Of a DNA stretch of 64,000 bases, positions 2,232 through 27,985 are shown one piece after another. The DNA comes from Argiope bruennichi. Taxonomy: Eukaryota. The notes under the pieces are model-generated. The model did no database searches. It saw only the letters and a program-made list of their open reading frames with translations, and was not told the origin of the DNA. Made by a program: the position numbers and the translations under genes. Every line of letters starts with the position of its first letter. The first letter of the stretch is position 1. The stretch is from NCBI RefSeq assembly GCF_947563725.1, contig NC_079159.1, positions 100,049,559 to 100,113,558 on the forward strand. The letters are read 5' to 3'.

Positions 2232-3807
2232 ATTTTTTTTACATTGATAAATGAAACCCATGTATAAAAGTAAATATTTTATATGAATTTTTTTTTATAT
2301 GATAATCTTTTTCGCCTTATTTTCAAAATATGTGGAATAAAAAAAGTGTATATAACTTTTGTGGTACATTGCGTGAAAAATAAACAAAATCAGAAAGAAG
2401 ATATGCATTCAAAATTATTAATATAGCATAGAATTTCATGATAAACACAAGATAATGCTTGTTATTAAAAACTGCAGAAGTGAAGTTGAAAAATTAGCTA
2501 TAAATTCAAGCGAAATGATTAAAATTTCAAAGCAATGAATTTAAAGTTTTATCACTATTGATATTTTTACCTCGCTTATTGAAAAATAAAATGCATTGCA
2601 TTCATTGTGATTAAGAATTAATATAAAACTGACCTTTCTCAGATTAATGTAATAGAAAGACATTGGAGGAACCAGTCGAATTCCATTTAAATACGATGTT
2701 ATTGTTAAATATAAAAGTCTATAATAGCAGGTATATTGTAAGTGGGAAAGAAATAAAAGTGAGTCATGGATTTTCATCAACCCAAAACTACAAAGAAAGA
2801 ATTCCCCGACAATTGACATTGCGGGGCCGAAAGTTAAGAAGTCTAGTCCGATACCTGCGAAAGAAGGGGGTAACCCCCCTGCAGGAGGATAGGAAATATC
2901 AGAAATATAACTTTCAGCTTCAGGGAAGCCATTCGCCCGTCCTCTCAATTGAGGTCATAAAGGGAAAGGGAGAAATCTATGAATGGGTTTAAATCGGTTT
3001 ATGGACCGGTTATTATTCGAATTATAGTATCATTGTAATCATTCGAAACCTCATATCGCTGAAATTAGTGCTATTCACAGGAAAGGGTTTGTAAGTGTGA
3101 AATTACTACTTTATTTGCATTGGTGACTTCTTTTGTAGAATATCAATAACTTGGCATAAAGATAATTTCTAGTTGCCGGTGAAATGACATTCTATTGGCA
3201 TTCTTTATAGGCGCCATTTATTGCAGAATATAGAACTAAAGTGAAATCTTTTAAAGAAATGACACTATTTTATTTCATTTTTTTAAAGAAAATACTTAAT
3301 TCAAATAAATAAATTAAATTAATGGTTTTGAATAAAATTAAAAACTGCTTAAATAGATAAATGCAGTGAATCACACTTCACTTAAATAAATTAATTAGTA
3401 TTAATAACAAAAAATAAATTTTAATAACAATAATAATTAATAATTTTTAATTAAAGTGTGATTGAAGTAACAGTTGCCTGAAATAAATATTTGAAAATAA
3501 TAATAGCAAAAATTTTTGTTATTCAGAAATTCGTGAATTATGCATCTATAATATAAACACGTGATTTGTTTCTTCAAATATTAGACCTTAGCTCGCGATC
3601 GTCAAGGGCAAAATTGGCACAGACTCCAAAAGATTGCGTAACTTTTCTAGCAACAAACGCGCCAATCTACTTTTATGTTTACTTCATTTTACTCTTTCAA
3701 AAATCTTTTCTTTATGTTGACCTTTTTTTTTTTTCTTTTTTTTTCCGCTTTTGAGTTTAATTCCGCTTATTAATGTTTTTCATGAAATTTACAAACTAAC
3801 TGAAGAA

Positions 3808-3998
3808 CCGCAGTTTAACCCCCTTCTACGCCAAGTTGCGATAACGCGCCAAAGTTTCTCGGTTTCTCTAGACTGGCAAATCTATTATCTTTTGCCTTTA
3901 TGATTGGACATCATAGCTCTGCGAAAAACACGGCGCAAGACCATTGTTGGCGATTTTTGAAAATTGCGCCAAGCAGGGGGTTAAACTGCAGTCGTACC
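3808..3998 (+). mobile_element. MITE-like non-autonomous element of about 190 bp with terminal inverted repeats CAGTTTAACCCCCT ... AGGGGGTTAAACTG (copy A)
   Basis: The termini of the copy are reverse complements of each other. The whole copy reappears in inverted orientation at 6380-6605 and partially at 545-660. Confidence 0.55.
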
Positions 3999-4339
3999 AC
4001 AACAACTCTCACTTGAGAAGGCAGACCAAAAAGCGTATTTTGTTAATAAACATGTTTTTTTTTAAAGACATGTGTTTCGCTAATAAACATTGAATGACAA
4101 AGCATTTGGCTTGAGAGCGCCTCGTGTTGTATGCCAAAAACACCTTGGCGGCCTCAAAGCTTGAGCCTGCGCAGTTTCGTTTTTGACGGGCGCGGACTTC
4201 AAATTGTCTTCCCATCAAGGAATAATTGTTTTGATTTAGCTATGCAGATGTATTTAAATTTCTAGGAAGAATTAACAAATATGAATAATCTTATCACTTA
4301 AAAATTTTTGATTTCAGAAGAAAATTTGAGCATCCAAAT

Positions 4340-4478
4340 ATGGGAGATGCAATTTATGAGTTTATAAAAACAGCATTCCAAAAGATCTCTGATGTGTTAT
4401 CAGCATCTATAGTATTTGGAGGCTTACTTAATAAAATCGAAGAAAAGACAGGCATCGCAGGATCTTTCATAATTACAG
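4340..4478 (+). CDS. REEP5-like: REEP5/6-like (DP1/Yop1/TB2-HVA22 family) gene, exon 1 with ATG. Translation MGDAIYEFIKTAFQKISDVLSASIVFGGLLNKIEEKTGIAGSFIIT, then donor g|gtaagt (phase 1)
   Basis: ATG at 4340. LNKIEEKTGIAGSFII matches the conserved N-terminal L(A)KLEAKTGVNRSFIALG stretch of REEP5 as I recall it. Canonical GTAAGT donor at 4479. Reading frame is continuous with exons 2-4. Confidence 0.75.
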
Positions 4479-5327
4479 GTAAGTCAATTTCATCAAAAAT
4501 GAGATGAAACTGTAAAATATTAAGCGTTTAAACAAATTTCAACAAAGTCTAAAGTAATTTGATTCTCCATCAAAATCGTATTTTTGGAATTTGAAAGCAT
4601 ATAATCCAAGGAATATATCTACCAAATAAGAAAAATGAGTAGCAAAATTATGTTTTCTTATTAAAGGTGCTATATTAAAATAGGATTTTGCATGCCAACT
4701 GTCCCTATATCTAACCTATGTGTGATTAATTTTAATCTACATTAAGAATATGAAAAAACATTAGTTCGTTCTATATGAATTTTCAAAATCGATTGTGTAA
4801 TCTAAAAAAAATCGTACATTAAAAACTGAAATAAATGTCAAAGTTTCTTTTTTTTTAATAGGCTATACAAATTTCCAAACTAAAAATACAATGCGTCACA
4901 AAAAATGTATTGGCTTAATATTAGTTAGTTTCTATATTTATTTACTAAAAAATCTTCGATTTATACGTGGGTGTCATGACATGCAAATAATATATTTGCT
5001 AGTTTGCGTATATTTAGTAAACATTCAAAAATTTTAAAAAAACACACATTATAATTATAATATTCATTTCGTTATTATTTTTTATATTCCTTAAACTATG
5101 CAATTTTAATAACAATTACAAAAAATAATGCAAATTGCTTTTTATAAAAATTAATTACATTTAAAAATTCTAATAATAATTAGTTAAAAGTTTGCGTATA
5201 CATATGAAAAAGGCTTGCAAAATTACTATGGACAATAAGTAGGTAGCTGGATAGGCCTTATATGAAAACTTATGCGAATCGCTGAAGCATGGATTGAAGC
5301 AGTATTAATGCTTCTTTAGAAGAAATT

Positions 5328-5522
5328 TTATTCCACTTTGAGAAAATCACTCTTTTTAAATATCTCTTTCGTAGTTTTGCATTTCGATAAGTCCCACAAA
5401 TGTTCAATTCTGTTTAAGTCCTTCGATTGTGGAGGAGAATGGAGCTGATTTTTTGATACTCTAAGGCAGTCAGAGATACTTCTTGAGAGCATTGCCTCGC
5501 ATAAACCAAAAGTCATCTCCAA
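5328..5522 (-). mobile_element. Tc1/mariner-type transposase C-terminal relic (…HSPPQSKDLNRIEHLWD…)
   Basis: The translated minus-strand ORF carries the Tc1-family signature WPSQSPDLNPIEHLW in degenerate form. The ORF is short and has no N-terminal domains. Confidence 0.5.
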
Positions 5523-7756: not shown

Positions 7757-7975
7757 GTTTGATATGTTACATATGTTTATTTAAAATGTTTCTGAAACTT
7801 TTCATTTTAGAAGCTTTTTACTCATTGTTCTTTATTTCTACTTTAAATTATACTATTTTTATATGTAGGAATTAAAACATATTTGCACTTCTAATTAATC
7901 TTATTTATATTGAAAACTAGATTTATGAAGTGAAAATAAAGTGTATCTTCAATTATTTAAGGTACTACATACTTC
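7757..7975 (+). mobile_element. Solo diverged copy of the Tc1-like long terminal inverted-repeat region (related to 17030-17237)
   Basis: atgtttatttaaaatgtttctgaaacttttcattttagaagc...tttgcacttct...ttatttatattgaaa parallels the right arm of the element at 15546-17237 at about 75% identity. Confidence 0.45.
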
Positions 7976-8509: not shown

Positions 8510-9180
8510 TCTTGTATTGACTCCCCCCCTCCACGAATATAGCGGTTTAATTTGGCAGCATAAGATCTCGAACGTAAAACTGTCTCGAGACTCTTGCAAT
8601 CGTAATCCACTATCTCCAATATATCATTAATTCGCCTTAAGTTTAGCACTGCTATGTACATCGAATAGATTTTTAAGATATTTGTTCCGTTTCAAGACTT
8701 GGGTCAAATTTTAAGGCAATGTTCACTCCATATATGGTAACATACCTGAGACTTGCAATTTGATAATAAATTGCATTCCATCCAGCCATTTATTTCTGAT
8801 TTTAAGACTGACTCTCTCAGCGGTAGATTGAGTATCAAGTTAACAAGACTTCGCATTGGTCATACTTATTTTACTCACAAGCCTTTACTTCATTCGGATA
8901 CGGCTCAAATTTGTTCAAGATGTAGGACCATAATATCTGTTCGGTATATCAAACGTGAATGCTCTAAGTACCGTTTTCTAAGAATAAAATATTTCGGAAG
9001 TGATTATCCAAATGTGAAAGATATAATTGGCGAACTTTACCATGATAATGTGTTTTCATTTTTATTTGACGTCAATTCCATGCATAACATTTAATTTCTT
9101 TTTTCACTTTGCTCTTTTAACTTTGCATCTCCTTACTGTTTTTAATGAGGGTTTTTTTTTTTTTTTAAGTTAACACGAGT
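8510..9180 (+). mobile_element. 3-prime fragment of a non-LTR (Jockey/CR1-like) retrotransposon: ORF2 C-terminal domain plus tail
   Basis: ORF 8753-9094 encodes LTRLRIGHTYFTH…C..C…VRYIKRECSKY, the C-terminal cysteine motif typical of Jockey/CR1-clade ORF2 (LxRLRIGHTRLTH…C.C). Upstream frames are riddled with stops, so it is a truncated relic. Confidence 0.5.
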
Positions 9181-10704
9181 TTGGCACAGCTTGGCCAATA
9201 TTGGTCCTTGCGCCTGAAAAAAAATTAATCAATCAGTCCAAGAGACCTCTCAATGTCTAGACGTATGAGGCGAGCTTCTTTAGCACCAATGTGAAAAACC
9301 GCCAATGTATGAATAAGATGATTTTCATCTGTATATCTCAGAATAAAGAACCCGTATCTGTTGAATTCTAAATAAAGCTGCACCGTATTGTTTCTTTACC
9401 ATGAGTCAATCTTGCCAAAACAAACTGATTTACAGATAATAATTTCTACTCTTCTAAATAATAAAGTGAGAGAGTTCAGAGATTCGACCAGAAGTTCAGC
9501 TCTTTGATGGAATAATAGTCTTATTTCTTGCTAGTGCGAAACAATAACAAATAGATTAAAAAATTACTTTTGATGCTTTTGGAAAATTGGATTTGAAGAC
9601 AACGGTAATTGAACTTCCTTTCCTGCGTAAAATTATTGGCTAAATTTCTCGACAATGATTTATTTTTGCTGCAAGTTCTATTTATCTGGGTTCTTTGAAG
9701 GTCGGATGTTTCTATTATTCTATGCCGATAAAGGACTCAGGAAAAATTATTTATCACTGCGAATGAGATATCTCGCCTTCCAAGAATGTTTGCTGTGCGT
9801 TAGAATCTAACTTTGATATCAGTTTAGATAAGTTTGTATACCGAATCCGTTCAGATTTTTTTTGTATATATATTATATATAGTGAGTACAGTTGCTGTTT
9901 ATATTTTCTGGAGTTTGCACCTAATTCGCAATTCTCAGTTAATATCAGTGATAAATTACGATTAGAAAGCTGGACTGAGGGGGATAGGTGGTCACAGGTA
10001 ATCATTATTAGTCGAGTTGCCAAATAAACAAATTTGTAAAAAGTATAAATTTTAGAAATTATAAAGTATTAGGATTACAATGTGTTATCCTAATGCATTG
10101 TAATGTATTACATATTAGTTATTCGTATTAAAAATATATTAAATATTAGTTATTCGTTTAACTGCAATGTTATATTCCACTTAGTGGGTGTCGTAAAAAA
10201 GGGATTTTTAATGCTATATTAGTTTGATTCTTATTATTTTCATATAAACTATTATCTATATATTCAAAATAATAAGGAACACTAATGAACCAGTCACCCA
10301 ACTTCAACTACTGGTTCGATTTCGCCACTCTTTGCATCATATGAAAACTCTTGACTCGTAGATATTCTATCAAGGATCGCTTGCCATCTTTCGCCTTTTA
10401 TTTCTGAAATAAATTGAAAAAATATCATCTCTTAATACATTCTTTGTTCTCTACTCACAAATCTTGCATGGAGTTCGTCTTTTTGACCGCTGAGGAAACA
10501 CAAAAAGTTTTACTTCATTTTAAGGCTCATGACCCCTAAATATACCTTCAAAGGTCACCTATCTTTATTTATCCTCCATTTCGGAGAGAAATAATTATAA
10601 TTAATCTTCAATGTATATTCTCTATGGGAAAAAAGTGCGACAGAGTTTACTGTTCACAACCACTAAATGGATTTTTAAAAAACATTTATTTTATAAGAAT
10701 ACTT

Positions 10705-12089: not shown

Positions 12090-12228
12090 ATTTAAATGTT
12101 TGGAGGAAGATAACAAGGAAAAGGCATTTAATTGGATCAAGTATTGGATAGTGTTCTGCGCCTTCCATGCTGCTGAGCATTTTGGTGATAAATTCATATA
12201 CTGGTTACCTGGATATCAAATTTTCAAG
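12090..12228 (+). CDS. REEP5-like: REEP5-like exon 3: (S)FKCLEEDNKEKAFNWIKYWIVFCAFHAAEHFGDKFIYWLPGYQIFK
   Basis: Acceptor after a T15 tract at 12088-12089, phase 2 into phase 0. Strong similarity to REEP5 [41 protein letters not shown]. Donor aag|gtatgt. Confidence 0.8.
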
Positions 12229-13467: not shown

Positions 13468-13590
13468 TTTATTTTTCTGTTGTGGTGCTTCGCTCCGGTC
13501 CCAAATAATGGATCCACCATACTTTATGATAACTACGTCCGGCCGCTATTTCTGCGCAACGCCGATACATTGGACCGAGTGACAGATATG
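13468..13590 (+). CDS. REEP5-like: REEP5-like exon 4: FIFLLWCFAPVPNNGSTILYDNYVRPLFLRNADTLDRVTDM
   Basis: Acceptor atttcag at 13466-13467. Matches REEP5 [41 protein letters not shown]. Donor atg|gtaacg. The terminal exon was not resolved. Candidate acceptors lie at about 15009 and about 17398, each followed by a short ORF and an AATAAA. Confidence 0.8.
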
Positions 13591-13722
13591 GTAACGAGTT
13601 TCATTCACAAAGAAATTTCTAAATATTGGAAATAAATGATTTTTAATGGGATATTAAATATGACACATGTATTATTTTTAGACAATATGATTTGGCATAT
13701 GAAGAATCAATGTAATTTTACC

Positions 13723-13723
<1 letters not shown>

Positions 13724-13788
<65 letters not shown>
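13724..13788. repeat. (CA)n microsatellite, about 32 units
   Basis: Uninterrupted acacac tract. Confidence 0.95.
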
Positions 13789-13793
<5 letters not shown>

Positions 13794-14042
13794 TTTCAAA
13801 TATTTAAATTAACTGATTTATTGGTATGCAAATAATATAAAATTTGGTTAAAAATTAGTTATGGGATTGTAAACTTCACATTATTTATTATTTTTATTCT
13901 GGTTTGTAACAAAGATTAAAAACTGATTTAACTGATTAATTTTAATTTGAGCATGTTTTAAAATAAGTTTAAAACGCAACATTGTAACTTGGTTTGAGCA
14001 GTTTGCTTTTCTCTAACTTTCAAGCAAAATAAAATATGAATG

Positions 14043-14173
14043 AAACAAGCATTCCATTTCTCTTAAATAAAACAAGCATTTCTCTTAAATAAAACAAGCA
14101 TTTCTCTTAAATGAAACAAGCATTTCTCTTAAATGAAACAAGCATTTCTCTTAAATGAAACAAGCATTTTCAG
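14043..14173. repeat. Minisatellite, about 6 units of the 23-bp unit aacaagcatttctcttaaatgaa
   Basis: Direct reiteration visible in the sequence. Confidence 0.9.
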
Positions 14174-15545
14174 TTTCTCTTACTACCCCCCCCCTTTTTT
14201 TTTTCGAGGATTATGTGTAATCGACGAATTATTATTAGCCCTTTTCTTTTTAGTACTGAGTATTTTATGTATAGGCTGAAAGGTTCTAAATGTCACATAA
14301 CTTTCATAATGTAGTTAGTTATATTGACTTTCATAATGTAGTATTGTAACTGAAATACAGGAAATAAATTGGTTATAAATTGAAAATGAAGTATACTCCT
14401 GAGTTCCGGTTCGCGACTATCCTATCTAGTTTTCTTTCATTGTAATTAAATGAGGAAGACAAGGCGTTGTATTGGCAACACTGTTTATGTTTCCTGCATT
14501 TAAGTTAGGCATTACAGAATTGAGCAGTTTGCATCCATTAACTTACTTTTTCTCTAATAAATTCTTAAAATGTGAAGTGCAATATATAAACATATACTAT
14601 ATAAACTACCGTTACAGAGCCTTTTATTTGAACTCGACACGTTACCGGCAATTGCTTCTATGATTTAACGGGCTGCGGCCACGTTCATATTATGCATGAA
14701 TTGAGATAAATGAAACGTTTAGTACTCGATAAGCAGTGAAAAAATACGTATTATAACATTCAGTTTTGGTATAAAAACTTTGTCTCCTGGTCAAAGAAAG
14801 GAGTTCATAGAACACTGGCTTAACCAGCTTTTTTGTAATCCGGCCTGCCCTTCCGCCACATTAGGCCGGATATTCGGGGATCTACTATATTAATAAGCTA
14901 TTAAAAATACATTATTATAACAAAAGATTTTAAAATTTGTTGGTGACATTCCTGCTTTGATAAATTTTTTTTTCACTTAGTTTTTTACTTTCTGATTTTC
15001 AAAGAATAATAATCGGAGAAAATTATGGGTTTACATTACCTGAAACCTAAAACGCTCCAGAAAATTGCTGTACCTGAAACTACATTCTTGAGCATGATCC
15101 TCTCTTCTGAAATGTTAATATGTATCCGCCTCCGGCTCTAATGCTGCGTTATTCAAAATTTTAATAAAAACAATATTTGAATTGAAACCTATTCGGAGTG
15201 GAAACTAAGTTGAACCTTTATATCTTGATCATAAACAATGAAAAAAAAAAGGATAATATATTAATAGAACAACTTTAAAAAAGTCGATTTCATTTGCAAT
15301 AATGAAAACATTACTGTAAAATATATCTTAAAAATATCTTTAAATGTTAATCAAATTTAGAGAAAATATTTTAAAGCAATTAAATTGGGGTTTTTTACAC
15401 TGTTTTAAATTTTAAAACAATGAAAAGAATATATTTGTACCGTAATATTTTCGGAAGTTATCGGGGAAAAACAACAAAATCTCAATTAGCTTTCAAGCGA
15501 TTAAAATGGCTCCGATATGCACATTTACAACCTTCAAAGTATATA

Positions 15546-17237
15546 CAGTGGCTCAAAAAATTGAGAGTACACCTTACTTTTACTTCATAAATCCGACTTT
15601 CAATATAAATAACACATTACCGAGAAGTGCAAACCTGTTTTTATTTTTACACATAACAAATGGTTTAATTTAGAGTAAAAATAAAGAAAAATCAACGAAA
15701 AACTTCTAAATTGAAAAGCTTCAGAAGCATTTTAAATAAACATACGCAGGATTTTGCCTTAAAAAATTGAGAATACACCAATTAAATTCTTGTAATATCT
15801 CGCATAGAAAGAACGTGTCAGTATATAGTTGCATGTCTTTTGGCTTTTATAATGGCCTCTAAACGTCGTGGTACCGATTCGACCCATTTTTGGTGATATC
15901 AGAAGATATTTTACCCCATTCTTCTTGCACCACTGGTTTTAAAGGGGTTTTGTTTCTAATTTTGTGTTTTTGGACCACTGCTTCAAGTGTGGCCCACGAA
16001 TATTCAATGATATCGATTGATATTGATATCGGGGTACTGTGGATGTGTGTAACTGCTTTTTACAATGAAAAAGACACCATATTTTAAAGTTACGTGCATT
16101 CTGTTTGGGGTCGTTGTCCTGTTGGAAAATGGAATTTCCATTAAAACCCAAATTTTTAACACTTTCCTTTAGATTATTGTGACCCGATGGTTCAACCAAC
16201 TAGTTGCAGAAACTTTTCGAATCATAGCAGAAGTGTAGATGATGAAATTGTGCGAAATGCCATTAGACAAGCTGAGTATAAAAGTCGCATTGTTAGAGAG
16301 AAACCGTTCATCAGCTTGTAAATTCAGAAAAGGCATTTGAAGTTTACAAAAACTCATCAATTGAAGACCAATTACTTTTGGAATAAAGCTATATTTCGTA
16401 ATGAAAGAAAACTCAACATTTTTGGCAGTGACAGCCATCGTACTGTATGGAGAAAGTCTAATGCTGCTGTGGATCCAAAAAATTTACGTCTTACAGTTAA
16501 ACATGATGGTGACTCCGTCATGATTTGAGGTTGCATGGCTTAATCCGAGGTAGGAAATTTAATTTTTATAGATGGCATTATAAACTATATGGTTTACTTG
16601 TATATACTTCGCAGCAATCTAAAGGAAAGTGCTAAATATTTGGGTTTGAATGGAAATTTCATTTTCCAGTAAGACAACGACCGCAAACAGAATGCACATT
16701 ACGTCAAAATATGGTGTCTTTTTCACTGTAAACAGCAGTCACATACACCACCATTGTACTCCGACATCAATGTCGTTGAATATTCGTGGGCCACACTCGA
16801 AGTAGTAGTCCAAAAACACAAAATTAGAAACAAAACCCCTTTAAAACCAGTGGTGCAAGAAGAATGGGGTAAAATATCTTCAGATACCACCAAAAATGGG
16901 TCGAATCGGTACCACGACGTTTAGATGCCATTATAAAAGCCAAAAGACATGCAACTATATACTGACACGTTCTTTCTATGCGAGATATTACAAGAATTTA
17001 ATTGGTGTATTCTCAATTTTTTGAGGCAAAATTCTGCGTATGTTTATTTAAAATGCTTCTGAAGCTTTTCAATTTAGAAGTTTTTCGTTGATTTTTCTTT
17101 ATTTTTACTCTAAATTAAACCATTTATTATGTGTAAAAATAAAAACAGGTTTGCACTTCTCGGTAATGTGTTATTTATATTGAAAGTCGGATTTATCAAG
17201 TAAAAGTAAGGTGTACTCTCAATTTTTTGAGCCACTG
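15546..17237. mobile_element. Defective Tc1-like DNA transposon with a foldback-like structure. The element has CAGTG…CACTG termini, TA flanks and about 650-bp inverted arms (15546-16200 versus 16590-17237). The central 16337-16528 segment encodes a mid-transposase fragment
   Basis: Termini tacagtggctcaaaaaattgagagtacacc and ggtgtactctcaattttttgagccactgta are reverse complements, flanked by TA. The central ORF KLNIFGSDSHRTVWRKSNAAVDPKNLRLTVKHDGDSVMI matches the Tc1 KFNLFGSDG…PTVKHGGGSVMVWG segment. Both arms encode a C-terminal FQQDNDPKQNA… region, on the - strand in the left arm and the + strand in the right arm. The outer 300 bp of the arms are about 98% identical and the inner parts about 90%. 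There is no N-terminal DNA-binding region and several stops. Confidence 0.8.
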
Positions 17238-17999
17238 TATATGTCAAGTTTGATAATCTTAGGACAAATGGTTCGGCCTTTTGAAAGTTAACATACATAT
17301 TATCCTTTATTATTGATAAAAAAATATTGACTTAAACTTTAAGGGTATTTTGAACTTAATTATTTTTAATTCTATTTTTTGTAGGCTCCCAAAATTCTGC
17401 AGACCTAAGATCATGTGACAATGGAAAATATGCTACAGCTTTTTATTCTAATACACTTTTGCTTTATGCATTTTGCAGCTTAATAAAAACACTTCTGAAC
17501 ACCCTTTTTTTCTTGTTTTCAAAAATTATTTTTTTTTAAAAAAAAGAGGTATCTGAAAGTAAAGAAACTACTATGTATAAATGAAATGTCATATAAAATC
17601 TAAAACTAAGTTCCATTAAACACTTTTGATTGACAACAGAAATTATTGAATAAATAACTCAATCAATAAGTCACAAACCTCAAAACAAATAAATGAATTA
17701 GAAAAAGAATATTGAAATATGATAAAGTAGAAGTAATAAAAATAAAAGAAAGGATCTATTCAATATTGTTGCGAATTTGCAATATTGCTTCCTTGCGTAA
17801 TTGTTCTCATAGTAAGGAAGAGAACTTTAAAGATAACTCTAACGGATATTGTCATATATAAAAACTATATCGTTTTTGGGTACATGAAGTTTATAAATGG
17901 CTGCAAGTGGTCTTCAAGTAGATAAAAATAATCATTTCCAGTCAATGATTGGTTCAGTTGGACCAGAGGCCTTTCTATTTAAAAACAGCCTACACCATT

Positions 18000-26038: not shown

Positions 26039-27985
26039 TTATATTAAAAATGGCAAGCCTAACTTCCCTCTAGCTGGAGTTAAACCCGGCATGGTACCAG
26101 AAATATTTTTAATGGACTTCCTACTCCTTTTGCTTCTACTAGTACTCAAAGATTTCTTATTCTGACTGCAATTCAGGGATTTCTTATTTTTATTATTATT
26201 CAAGGATATCCTGGTTCCTCCTGGTTTGCGAGTTGCAAGTACAGAACTTCGTAAATTCCACCTTGATGTGCGATTCAATTCACTGGCAAAATCTGTATAA
26301 GTTGTACCATTTGGAGATGTTCTGGACTGAATTAAATTTTGTTGGTTCCTCTCCCTCAAAACCATTTTCTGATCTTTTCTTTGAATAGCATTAGGACGAC
26401 TAGTAAACAACCTAGTGACTTTAGACGTTGACTTCCCAGTAGTACTTGGTACCATTCTGGAGCTATGAGCTGCAGGAGTCTGAAACATGGATACGCCAGT
26501 ACTGGATTTAAGCATCTTGCTTGGAGCTGATTTGGGAGTTGTCATAAGAGGTCGTTTTCCCGGTGTTCCTGTGACATTTCCCAGTTGCAATAAATGTTGC
26601 TTGTGTCGTTCTTGTTTCTCATTTTCCTTTTGGTTAATTCGTTCCACCCATTGTTTGGTTACAACTTGCCTATAATCTTCACCATAGTATAAAAATGGTG
26701 AGCCTTTTTCCCTTTCGTATACTTCAATATCTTGGAAAATACTGTTTTCTAAAGCAGGAAGCTCTTTTTGTAGCCTCTTCCTTTCTTTTTCTTCCTGCAA
26801 CAAATTCCCTTTGCGATTTTTAAATCTATTTGGATCTGCTGCTTTATTTTCAAAAACAATCATCAGCTCCCACAGTTCTTTCCTCTTCTCTATTTTTTTA
26901 ATAATATGCTGAACATCTTCATAATAACTTTTCCATTTTTCAACTTCAGCCTCGTGAGCTTCCAGAATTTCATCTGTTGCTTCAGAACATGAAAAGTATT
27001 CAAATTGCTGTCTTAGAGTTTCTGAAACGTAACATTTATCCCAAAGATTATGCAATTCCTGACGAAGGGACCTAATAAACATTTTAATGTTATCTTTTTT
27101 AATTTTTTCACATCTTTCAATCTCCTCCTGAATAGATTTTATGGTTGAGAGACGATAATCTACATGATTTGATAAAAAAGTCACACGTTTGCTCTCATCT
27201 ATTTTAAGCCTTTCCCACAAGACATTCAGCTTATTCATCAATGTTTTCTTTTCAGTCTCCAACTCTATTTTCTTCTTCTTTGCTTTGTTGATGATTTCTT
27301 CTAAAGCTTTAAATGTTTCATTAGAAAGAGAAAAATTTTCCTTCTCTGACAAAATTTCTTTTTCAAGAGGTGTTTCTGGAGTCAATTCAGTTGTTTCCCA
27401 AATTGTAGTCAGTTCCTTTTTGACCTTGCACAATTTCTTATGACGCATTTCCTTTTCTTTTTTAAGCATGTCAATATGTTGTTGAAGCTCATCCAAATCA
27501 TTTTCCGATGGAACTCCAGTGTTAGAAGGAAGCTGGTGCTCAGGCATATTTAAAATTCGACAAAGCTGCAATTCAACATTCTTTAAATCTCTATATGATT
27601 TTAATCTCTTGTGTTTCAATTTAGATAAGCTATCTAATTCTTGACGCAACATTTCTTCTTGCTTAATCAGTGATTTGTCATTAATTTCTTTGGGTGATAT
27701 TGATAGAGCCTTTGACAATTCTTGTATTTTGACCTTAAAATTTTCAATACGCTCTTTGGTGTCATTACAAAAAGTGGTCTCCTCATCAAAAATATCATTT
27801 AAAAGATTTTTTATATGAACCCATACAGCTCTTGCTCTTTGTGCTTTTTGGTTGCTGTCAATACCAAAAATTTGCCAAACATCATATAATTTTCTTAAAG
27901 CTTCTTTTACATTCATAATTTCTGTATTTGCTATTTCCTCCAAAATTATTTCATCATCATTTGGTTGTTGGTTATCAGCATCCAT
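26039..27985 (-). CDS. PRC1-like: PRC1/Ase1/MAP65-family microtubule cross-linker (protein regulator of cytokinesis 1, fascetto-like). Complete 648-aa ORF with no interruption
   Basis: A 1947-nt ORF. LRKLYDVWQIFGIDSNQKAQRARAVWVHIKNLL parallels human PRC1 LNHLREIWELIGIPEDQRLQRTEVVKKHIKELL. NLWDKCYVSETLRQQFEYF, LWERLKIDESKR and PNRFKNRKGNLLQEEKERKRLQKELPALE match the PRC1 rod and spectrin-fold signatures (WDQCF, LWDRLQIPEEERE, PNRFTNRGGNLLKEEKQRAKLQKMLPKLE). There is a Ser/Thr/Lys/Arg-rich disordered C-terminal tail. Confidence 0.85.
   Translation of the reverse strand: MDADNQQPNDDEIILEEIANTEIMNVKEALRKLYDVWQIFGIDSNQKAQRARAVWVHIKNLLNDIFDEETTFCNDTKERIENFKVKIQELSKALSISPKEINDKSLIKQEEMLRQELDSLSKLKHKRLKSYRDLKNVELQLCRILNMPEHQLPSNTGVPSENDLDELQQHIDMLKKEKEMRHKKLCKVKKELTTIWETTELTPETPLEKEILSEKENFSLSNETFKALEEIINKAKKKKIELETEKKTLMNKLNVLWERLKIDESKRVTFLSNHVDYRLSTIKSIQEEIERCEKIKKDNIKMFIRSLRQELHNLWDKCYVSETLRQQFEYFSCSEATDEILEAHEAEVEKWKSYYEDVQHIIKKIEKRKELWELMIVFENKAADPNRFKNRKGNLLQEEKERKRLQKELPALENSIFQDIEVYEREKGSPFLYYGEDYRQVVTKQWVERINQKENEKQERHKQHLLQLGNVTGTPGKRPLMTTPKSAPSKMLKSSTGVSMFQTPAAHSSRMVPSTTGKSTSKVTRLFTSRPNAIQRKDQKMVLRERNQQNLIQSRTSPNGTTYTDFASELNRTSRWNLRSSVLATRKPGGTRISLNNNKNKKSLNCSQNKKSLSTSRSKRSRKSIKNISGTMPGLTPARGKLGLPFLI

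Follow-up and report, generated by a model that had tools for sequence, protein, structure and literature searches.

A decayed Tc1-like transposon with a mirrored 3' end in the last intron of a REEP5-like gene of Argiope bruennichi

The locus, the element and its transposase relic

The stretch of the genome of the wasp spider Argiope bruennichi analysed here (64,000 nucleotides, referred to below as the window) carries a REEP5-like gene (P0179) whose annotated last intron (13591-17384) contains, in sense orientation, a 1,692-bp Tc1-like element of the DD34E, IR/DR type (15546-17237). The intron opens with a donor GT at 13591, directly after the penultimate coding exon (13468-13590, plus strand), and is followed by an annotated last mini-exon encoding APKILQT and a stop (17385-17408, plus strand), 148 bp downstream of the element. 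Two smaller Tc1-like remnants are present in the window. One is a solo right-type end of the same family, diverged (~80%), whose terminus is degenerate and which lacks the inner direct repeat (7772-7967, plus strand), and the other is the C-terminal relic of a more distant Tc1-like transposase, located by tblastn at 5276-5468 (minus strand). Both had been recognized in an initial annotation of the window, at 7757-7975 and 5328-5522, respectively.

The termini are of the Tc1 type, as that annotation had reported. At the left, TA is followed by CAGTGGCTC (15544-15554), and at the right, GAGCCACTG is followed by TA (17229-17239); the TA target dinucleotide of Tc1/mariner elements thus occupies 15544-15545 and 17238-17239, immediately outside the first (15546) and last (17237) nucleotides of the element. 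The TA target-site duplication and the CAGTG...CACTG termini by which Tc1/mariner elements are recognized are both present.

Between these termini, two inverted arms of ~630 bp flank a unique centre of 426 bp. The right arm (16609-17237, plus strand) holds the transposase C-terminus and a 3' end of 272 bp that contains an inner and an outer direct repeat, and the left arm (15546-16182, minus strand) is the reverse complement of the right, equivalent to positions 1696-1067 of a canonical Araneus copy. Each mirrored arm consists of a ~270-bp end and ~355 bp that code for the C-terminus of the transposase. The centre had been placed at 16337-16528, but its actual span is 16183-16608 (plus strand); it covers transposase codons ~79-224, with in-frame stops and with N in place of the first catalytic D (FRNERK). 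The similarity between the arms far exceeds chance. Gapped blastn aligns them over 633 nt at 93.4% identity (bit score 924, E=0), which bears out the earlier description of the left arm as an inverted copy of the right, and the inverted similarity is clearly not confined to less than 100 bp at the termini. An inverted repeat search recovers it in two blocks, one of 477 nt at 97% (15541-16017 and 16766-17242) and one of 139 nt at 86% (16044-16182 and 16609-16747).

A repeat search also located an outer and an inner 25-nt direct repeat in each arm. In the left arm the outer repeat, a putative transposase binding site, is at 15549-15573 and the inner repeat at 15755-15779 (both plus strand); their counterparts in the right arm are at 17210-17234 and 17004-17028, respectively (both minus strand). 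Outer and inner repeats are 206 bp apart in both arms and 88-92% identical, the arrangement expected of an IR/DR element, and they are conserved in Araneus and Trichonephila copies. The mirrored arm meets the forward body of the element at 16182/16183, where ATTGTGA is followed by CCCGATGG. Microhomology at this breakpoint amounts to at most 1-2 nt, and the motif AGATTA(A/T)T is found 5-12 nt ahead of it in the two parental sequences. The whole element can be written as the reverse complement of canonical positions 1067-1696 joined to canonical positions ~634-1696, and comparison with canonical copies revealed neither host DNA nor additional termini between its parts.

Homology of the coding relic to transposases was established with phmmer and tblastn. 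Its best phmmer matches are spider Tc1/Tcb1 transposases (E=5e-106), and among the matches listed the nearest are Tc1 transposases of spiders, at identities of up to 69% over 98% of its length. When the Trichonephila transposase P0001 is used as a tblastn query, residues 96-341 align on the plus strand (16226-16962), with the right-arm stop codon at 16963-16965, and residues 225-341 align again on the minus strand (16178-15821), confirming that the mirrored stretch includes the coding sequence of the transposase C-terminus. This mirrored relic (15821-16178) is spread over three frames by two frameshifts. The first is a 10-bp tandem duplication accompanied by a 2-bp deletion; the duplication (two copies of TGATATCGAT, 16008-16027) is private to the left arm and is present in both assemblies. 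The second, common to both arms, is the loss of 1 nt from a run of A. The left arm was originally described as reading cleanly, which holds around FQQDNDPKQN but not elsewhere, and the right arm as being read with stops, of which there is one only (FQ-stop-DND) in addition to the shared frameshift. The spacing between the second D and the E is 34 residues in P0001 (D245, E280) and in the relic alike.

The N-terminal DNA-binding part of the transposase is missing, as had been proposed; tblastn found codons 1 to ~78 neither in the element nor anywhere in the 64-kb window. The unique centre retains the C-terminal part of an HTH_Tnp_Tc3_2 domain (a sub-threshold Pfam match), and Pfam DDE_3 gave no match on the conceptual translation of the decayed relic. 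A complete transposase ORF with an N-terminal paired-like HTH, such as an autonomous element carries, is absent. With its altered first D, its stops and its frameshifts, the relic, which retains ~263 codons in the forward part of the element, is a pseudogene, and the element appears to encode nothing functional. What remains is a dead element, a non-autonomous derivative of a Tc1-like DNA transposon of spiders.

Relatives in other spiders and a second assembly

Canonical relatives are found in two other spiders. The copy in Trichonephila clavipes (L001:2614-4296) is 1,683 bp long and has 245-bp inverted repeats and a 341-aa transposase, while that in Araneus ventricosus (L007:1599-3294) is 1,696 bp long; nucleotide identity of the Argiope element is 82% to the former and 86-87% to the latter. 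In four Trichonephila copies the terminal inverted repeats measure ~245-286 bp, and the 5' coding half is present. In Trichonephila the left inter-repeat region is mirrored. Two Araneus copies have a distinct left end in common, and the Araneus ends are asymmetric, in contrast to the 245-bp inverted repeats of Trichonephila.

All six canonical relatives carry the 5' UTR and N-terminal coding sequence at the position where the Argiope element has its mirrored arm, and in none of them does inverted similarity extend beyond 286 bp. Because the relatives have a normal 5' half, the foldback is a derived rearrangement and not the normal architecture of the family, and the original structural reading, in which the 3' part of the transposase and the right end are mirrored as the left arm, stands. 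That arms of 630 bp might be normal for this family is suggested by its long (~245 bp) IR/DR ends in Trichonephila, but the 5' UTR and N-terminal region retained in six of six relatives make this very improbable, and for the relatives examined it is already refuted. In the Argiope element the canonical left ~633 bp, comprising the left end, the 5' UTR and codons 1 to ~78, have been replaced by the mirrored right ~630 bp, comprising codons ~225-341 and the right end. The left part was exchanged almost nucleotide for nucleotide, position 660 of the element aligning to position 660 of the Araneus copy.

Two candidates for additional foldbacks were rejected. Trichonephila proteins of ~247 aa, which begin close to the residue at which the relic begins, were suspected to come from foldbacks with the same junction, but their loci (L002-L004) are canonical and their ORFs begin at an internal Met. 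Inverted matches in the Araneus L007 sequence are due to an unrelated neighbouring Tc1-like element in the opposite orientation. No A. bruennichi transposase is present among the 120 best protein matches listed, in which all named proteins are from Trichonephila or Araneus and at most 71% identical; the missing A. bruennichi proteins are probably explained by the published annotation, which was made on a repeat-masked assembly.

An A. bruennichi assembly produced independently (GCA_015342795.1, 21.8x PacBio, Pilon-polished) shows the complete foldback at the corresponding locus (L009:9828-11493). The 16182/16183 junction is found there as well (L005/L009), and both the differences between the inner arms and the 10-bp duplication are identical. 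The initial annotation had suggested that such derivatives can be sources of chromosome breakage; the locus is collinear in both assemblies and thus shows no sign of instability. Long inverted repeats are a known class of artefact in long-read libraries, and a chimeric long read or missed-adapter palindrome was therefore weighed as the source of the structure. The arms, however, are 93% and not 100% identical and have arm-specific indels, their ends match true transposon termini bordered by TA, the 426-bp centre is collinear with the right arm, and structure and arm-specific differences alike recur in an assembly built from other data. An assembly artefact is effectively refuted, and its probability is negligible. 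The right outer arm of GCA_015342795.1 shows many differences, and an allele that had escaped conversion was considered and rejected as their source. They are scattered small deletions that match neither outgroup, and they fit the residual errors which the authors of that assembly expect in repeat regions.

Divergence between the arms and the origin of the foldback

The arms are not equally similar along their length. Their outer 430 nt (15546-15975 and 16808-17237) are 98.4% identical, with 7 mismatches, whereas the inner 190 nt (within 15976-16182 and 16609-16807, which also differ by indels) are 86.3% identical, with 26 mismatches and 12 gap columns. The breakpoint lies near 15975/16808 (Fisher p=6e-9), and the observed likelihood ratio was reached in 0 of 2000 permutations. 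The graded identity described previously is therefore real, and the step is sharper than was stated. Derived changes in the inner zone, polarised against the outgroup, number 12 on the left and 13 on the right, a split that decay of both arms since one duplication event should leave. Of the seven differences in the outer zone, two (15586 and 16926) are not the same in the two A. bruennichi assemblies, which indicates that the outer arms were more alike still in the recent past. Gene conversion of the ends, the first of two options raised in the initial annotation, fits the sharp step, and it is this step in identity that suggests conversion from arm to arm.

The best explanation, which we consider reasonably probable though far from certain, is that repair of a break or gap switched template from one end of the element to the other, similar end, and that gene conversion between the arms later homogenised their outer part. 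After a break made by transposase or in some other way, repair synthesis would have copied the left terminal repeat, and the nascent strand would then have re-annealed, inverted, to the near-identical right terminal repeat. Copying would have continued inward from the right end until the product was joined to the body of the element at 16182/16183 with little or no microhomology. Such abortive gap repair with template switching has been modelled for Goblin, a MITE of the Tc1/mariner element Ozma. Both arms would subsequently have decayed by ~7% each, and the outer ~430 bp would have been re-homogenised, either through gene conversion between the arms or through another round of repair that started at an end and used the opposite arm, which would account for the step from 98.4% to 86.3%. 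The junction has no convincing microhomology, and so an MMEJ step is not directly supported. The near-exact, in-register replacement of the left part is likewise not predicted by the template-switch model. Taken together with the mirrored inter-repeat region of Trichonephila, this in-register replacement of the left third could, though with low probability, point to recurrent, length-preserving end-to-end copying in IR/DR Tc1 elements.

The second option in the initial annotation was that two copies lay head to head and that a deletion of both 5' parts and of the host DNA between them fused the 5'-truncated copies. The end product would be identical, the 13.7% divergence of the inner arms could be ordinary divergence between copies, and the other Tc1-like relics nearby imply frequent insertion in the region. 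Three events would nevertheless be required, the 98.4% outer zone would still call for later conversion, and the deletion would have had to restore almost exactly the canonical length; moreover, the junction holds no host DNA. We regard this fusion as unlikely.

It is also possible, although not the origin we would expect, that the foldback belongs to a non-autonomous subfamily that has amplified; the rearrangement would then have occurred once elsewhere, and a transposase acting in trans would have moved its product to this intron. The two termini and the four direct repeats have all remained intact, TA is present on both sides, the near-canonical length suits mobilisation, and Goblin shows that such derivatives can amplify. 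With the outer and inner putative transposase-binding repeats retained at both ends, the element could in principle be mobilised in trans. On the other hand, blastn found no second copy within the 64-kb window, and exact-match scans of metagenome contigs, in which spider DNA is not expected, were empty for both the junction and the terminal repeat.

Comparison with known systems and a predicted hairpin

Rearrangements of this type have already been described for other transposons, and the Argiope element is a tidy but ordinary example. The template switch favoured above is also the origin proposed for Goblin of Aedes aegypti (Yang et al. 2013, PMC3814204), a Tc1/mariner derivative with an inversely duplicated subterminal sequence that is attributed to gap repair in which the template was switched from the left to the right TIR after the left TIR had been copied. 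In Goblin, as in the Argiope element, an inverse duplicate of 3' subterminal sequence takes the place of the 5' part. Goblin, however, is a miniature element with 54-bp TIRs, no coding sequence, many copies and a clear 6-bp microhomology at its junction, whereas the Argiope element is of full length (1,692 bp), has 630-bp arms that include ~355 bp of coding sequence, and lacks clear microhomology. Given its size and its ~263 relic codons, it is not a MITE of the Goblin type, which would be miniature, free of coding remnants and high in copy number. Structures of this kind are substrates for the birth of MITEs. The locus provides a clean, datable case in which a cut-and-paste transposon with similar ends came to carry a portion of its gene as a long inverted repeat, and outgroups polarise its history into two steps, an old mirroring and a probable younger homogenisation from arm to arm.

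The maize locus Mu killer and composite Ac/Ds insertions (PMC3440606; bioRxiv 10.1101/2020.01.07.897926) share with the Argiope element the inverted duplication of a transposon end together with part of the transposase gene. The minimum free energy predicted for the fold of the Argiope element is -1054 kcal/mol, with 596 in-register pairs between the arms, compared with -363 +/- 11 for shuffled sequences and -650 for a canonical element. A pre-mRNA that runs through the element would hold a predicted hairpin of ~600 bp that could feed Dicer, and output of hairpin RNA or siRNA, as the initial annotation proposed for such derivatives, would be plausible. At Mu killer, at the Ac/Ds loci and in Argiope, read-through from a flanking gene could yield long hairpin RNA. 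At the plant loci dsRNA, siRNAs and heritable silencing of active elements have been demonstrated, via RdDM, whereas the family looks dead in the Argiope copy. It is conceivable, but improbable, that the element is an animal counterpart of Mu killer, in which the stem in the REEP5-like pre-mRNA would be diced to endo-siRNAs (or would seed piRNAs) that silence the Tc1 family in Argiope, and in which homogenisation of the outer 430 bp would represent maintenance of the stem and not neutral conversion. As it stands, the element is a decayed, rearranged transposon of a known type without evidence of function. Structures like it provide the starting material for small RNAs that derive from hairpins and silence transposons, as has been shown in maize, and if the hairpin is expressed from the host intron, the locus would be a ready chelicerate test case for silencing by such RNAs.

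Copies of Galileo, a P superfamily transposon, recruit internal sequence into their TIRs, and the '2RT' form in Drosophila mojavensis, whose TIRs are extended or recombinant (Marzo et al. 2013, PMC3573991), resembles the Argiope element in being non-autonomous and foldback-like. It differs in superfamily, in its 7-bp target-site duplication, and in TIRs that have also been lengthened by tandem repeats. The Argiope arms contain no tandem sub-repeats; TRF detects only three tiny repeats of 10-11 bp in the element, at 2-2.5 copies each. Foldback (FB) and Galileo elements are characterized by TIRs of tandem sub-repeats, a 7-9 bp target-site duplication and a P/MULE transposase. The Argiope element, with a TA duplication and a Tc1-like transposase, resembles them only in its foldback-like shape.

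Among IR/DR Tc1-like elements such as Bari, in which terminal inverted repeats may be short or long (Palazzo et al. 2016, PMC4877112), the ends measure ~250 bp and have conserved transposase-binding direct repeats. Similarity between left and right ends ranges from ~56% to 100% within one family, a range that matches the contrast between the asymmetric ends in Araneus and the 245-bp inverted repeats in Trichonephila. In Bari the ORF is kept and the inverted repeats never reach into the sequence that codes for the transposase, unlike in the Argiope element.

Architecture of the foldback element and its canonical relatives

The Tc1-type termini described for the foldback element in the initial annotation were read at both ends (TA|CAGTGGCTC at window 15544-15554 and GAGCCACTG|TA at 17229-17239), and the left side is, as had been claimed, an inverted copy of the right. 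A repeat search of the window returned inverted arms of 477 nt at 97% identity (15541-16017 and 16766-17242) and a second inverted block of 139 nt at 86% (16044-16182 and 16609-16747). A gapped self-blastn gave a single inverted alignment that spans both blocks (633 nt, 93.4% identity, bit score 924), far more than a similarity of under 100 bp at the termini. The element thus comprises a left arm (15546-16182), a unique centre (16183-16608) and a right arm (16609-17237); a unique central segment had been recognised previously, although its limits, placed at 16337-16528, were wrong. Each arm holds two 25-nt direct repeats with a spacing of 206 bp, at 15549-15573 and 15755-15779 on the left and, mirrored, at 17210-17234 and 17004-17028 on the right. 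Paired direct repeats at each end form the IR/DR layout found in many Tc1-like elements. No tandem sub-repeat arrays were detected in the foldback by TRF.

Conceptual translation of the centre and right arm matches spider Tc1/Tcb1 transposases of Trichonephila clavipes and Araneus ventricosus, with identities that reach 69% across 98% of its length (E=5e-106), and, with 34 residues separating D and E, the family belongs to the DD34E Tc1 group. The transposase relic is dead: the first catalytic D is replaced by N (FRNERK), the forward copy has four in-frame stops, and a 1-nt deletion within an A run is common to both arms. The left arm, which had been thought to read cleanly, is frameshifted by this deletion and again by a 10-bp tandem duplication at 16008-16027.

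The Trichonephila locus that encodes the 341-aa transposase P0001 contains a canonical element of 1,683 bp (L001:2614-4296) with inverted ends of ~245 bp at 97% identity, an ORF at 3001-4026 and 82% DNA identity to the window element, and three more Trichonephila copies (L002-L004) are likewise canonical. Two Araneus ventricosus copies (L007:1599-3294, 1,696 bp, and L006) are closer, at 86-87% identity, and are canonical in the sense that the 5' UTR and N-terminal coding region are present. An unrelated Tc1-like element in opposite orientation (L007:3536-4990) adjoins the first of these and explains the weak inverted matches at that locus. The window element corresponds to the reverse complement of canonical 1067-1696 followed by canonical ~634-1696; neither codons 1 to ~78 nor the canonical left end occurs in the element or elsewhere in the window, in agreement with the reported loss of the N-terminal DNA-binding half. 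The structural reading, in which a mirrored 3' part serves as the left arm, is supported, and the canonical form of the Trichonephila and Araneus copies examined confirms that the foldback is a rearrangement and not the native architecture.

Comparison with a second assembly

The window is 98-99% identical to the published A. bruennichi assembly GCA_015342795.1, yet it is not the same sequence and must belong to another assembly. At the corresponding locus (L009:9828-11493) the published assembly also has the element, with the junction, the arm-specific differences and the left-arm 10-bp duplication all as in the window, which excludes an assembly artefact. The two assemblies remain collinear across the 14.7 kb surrounding the foldback, and this comparison gave no sign of fragility of the locus. 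With a spacer of 426 bp and arms that diverge by 7%, inverted-repeat instability should be much reduced. The centre of the element differs between assemblies by only 1 change, while the right outer arm (L009:10900-11493, equivalent to window 16808-17237) differs by 26 substitutions and 26 indel columns. Since these changes, which include many small deletions, match neither outgroup, and the published assembly is a 21.8x PacBio, Pilon-polished sequence in which its authors expect residual errors in repeats, they have the appearance of long-read errors that escaped polishing and cluster in one inverted-repeat arm.

Identity step between the arms and proposed origin of the mirrored arm

A single change-point was fitted to an alignment of the right arm, the left arm in reverse complement and the Trichonephila element. 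In the outer zone (15546-15975 left, 16808-17237 right) the arms differ at 7 of 430 positions (98.4% identity), whereas the inner zone (15976-16182 left, 16609-16807 right) has 26 mismatches in 190 positions plus 12 gap columns (86.3%). This drop in identity is significant (Fisher p=6e-9; likelihood ratio reached in 0 of 2000 permutations), so that the arm identity, previously described as graded, changes more sharply than was stated. Derived inner-zone states relative to the outgroup number 12 on the left and 13 on the right, and both arms are equidistant from it (~19% in the inner zone, ~16% in the outer). Two of the seven outer differences, at 15586 and 16926, vary between the two A. bruennichi assemblies and are therefore young. 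These observations fit a history in which the mirroring is old, both arms then decayed neutrally and symmetrically, and the outer 430 bp were homogenised later. We infer that the homogenised tract would start at the termini and run inward; gene conversion between the arms would suffice, as would repair, templated by the opposite arm, of an end break made by transposase.

For the mirroring itself, the simplest route would be the break-repair template switch put forward for Goblin, a MITE of the Tc1/mariner element Ozma (PMC3814204). Following a break, whether from excision or another cause, repair synthesis would copy the left terminal repeat; the nascent strand would re-anneal, inverted, onto the near-identical right terminal repeat, copy inward from the right end and be joined to the strand arriving from the other side. 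Galileo '2RT' copies, which recruit internal sequence into their TIRs, are a further precedent (PMC3573991). Microhomology at the junction (...ATTGTGA|CCCGATGG...) is at most 1-2 nt, which lends no specific support to the end-joining step; AGATTA(A/T)T is found a few nt upstream in each parental sequence. Two head-to-head insertions followed by a deletion could also have produced the foldback, but this needs more events than a template switch and still requires later conversion.

The template-switch model does not explain why the mirrored arm takes the place of the canonical left portion nearly in register (position 660 of the element aligns with position 660 of Araneus), leaving a total length of 1,692 bp versus 1,696 in Araneus and 1,683 bp in Trichonephila; the post hoc chance of such a replacement is ~1-2%, and we know of no mechanism that requires it. 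Nor does the model explain the difference in the ends of the family: Araneus left and right ends have in common only the two ~26-nt direct repeats, whereas the Trichonephila left inter-repeat region mirrors the right one inside the ~245-bp inverted ends. End-to-end copying seems, from these copies, to have occurred more than once in the family, and the contrast resembles the short-IR and long-IR variation in Bari (PMC4877112). The foldback is a further example of a known transposon rearrangement, TIR extension by inverse duplication, and stands out chiefly for its size among Tc1/mariner elements and for a two-step history that can still be read.

Host gene, predicted hairpin and other features of the window

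Splicing three plus-strand exons (~12090-12228, 13468-13590 and 17385-17408) gives exactly the protein annotated in A. bruennichi as P0179 ('Receptor expression-enhancing protein 5 like'). This places the foldback, in sense, within the last annotated intron, with the last mini-exon 148 bp downstream of it. A plausible REEP first exon at 4340-4480 (+; MGDAIYEF...ITG|gtaagt) resembles the REEP5 N-terminus and falls outside the annotated 111-aa model, whose start exon is near 9950-10000. The model is probably incomplete or partly wrong, perhaps including its 8-codon last exon; if 17385-17408 is a mis-call, the foldback would instead lie ~2 kb downstream of the gene.

The predicted RNA stem has 596 in-register pairs, with a minimum free energy of -1054 kcal/mol compared with -363 +/- 11 for shuffles of the element and -650 for a canonical element. 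In maize, the Mu killer locus, an inverted duplication of a transposon end and partial transposase gene, yields hairpin RNA and siRNAs that silence its family (PMC3440606), and similar inverted duplications in Ac/Ds composite insertions give hairpin RNA, siRNAs and silencing (bioRxiv 10.1101/2020.01.07.897926). The putative hairpin and small-RNA functions suggested for the foldback are plausible.

A solo right-type end of the same family, noted earlier at 7757-7975, was found at 7772-7967 in an upstream intron of the REEP5-like gene; it is ~80% identical, has a degenerate terminus (…GGTACTACATA) and is without the inner direct repeat. The Tc1 C-terminal relic placed at 5328-5522 is present, though at 5276-5468 on the minus strand, and belongs to a more distant Tc1-like transposase (64% and 35% identity to P0001 across 25 and 31 aa, respectively). 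A 113-aa ORF at 8753-9094 (+) containing '...LTRLRIGHTYFTH...' is similar to the C-terminal tail of ORF2 proteins from non-LTR retrotransposons and is probably another TE relic.

An intronless 648-aa PRC1/MAP65-like ORF at 26039-27985 (-) matches an annotated A. bruennichi protein at 100% identity and is 87% identical to its Larinioides counterpart and 71-73% to proteins of Trichonephila clavata, Nephila and Caerostris; a second A. bruennichi paralogue is just 52% identical. This ORF has the look of a single-exon paralogue that is old and conserved, and it may be a retrogene. The transposon DNA, although decayed and presumably neutral, shows 82-87% identity across genera (window versus Trichonephila and Araneus elements), whereas the PRC1-like protein is 71-73% identical to the best matches returned in other araneid genera and lower still to that in Araneus, which may be a paralogue. 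Horizontal transfer of the family, or a common source for it in the recent past, might account for this difference. The right half of the window holds a large multi-exon ACSF4/AASDH-like gene (~34000-55000, +; also L005:1-3963 in the published assembly) with AMP-binding and PQQ/beta-propeller domains.
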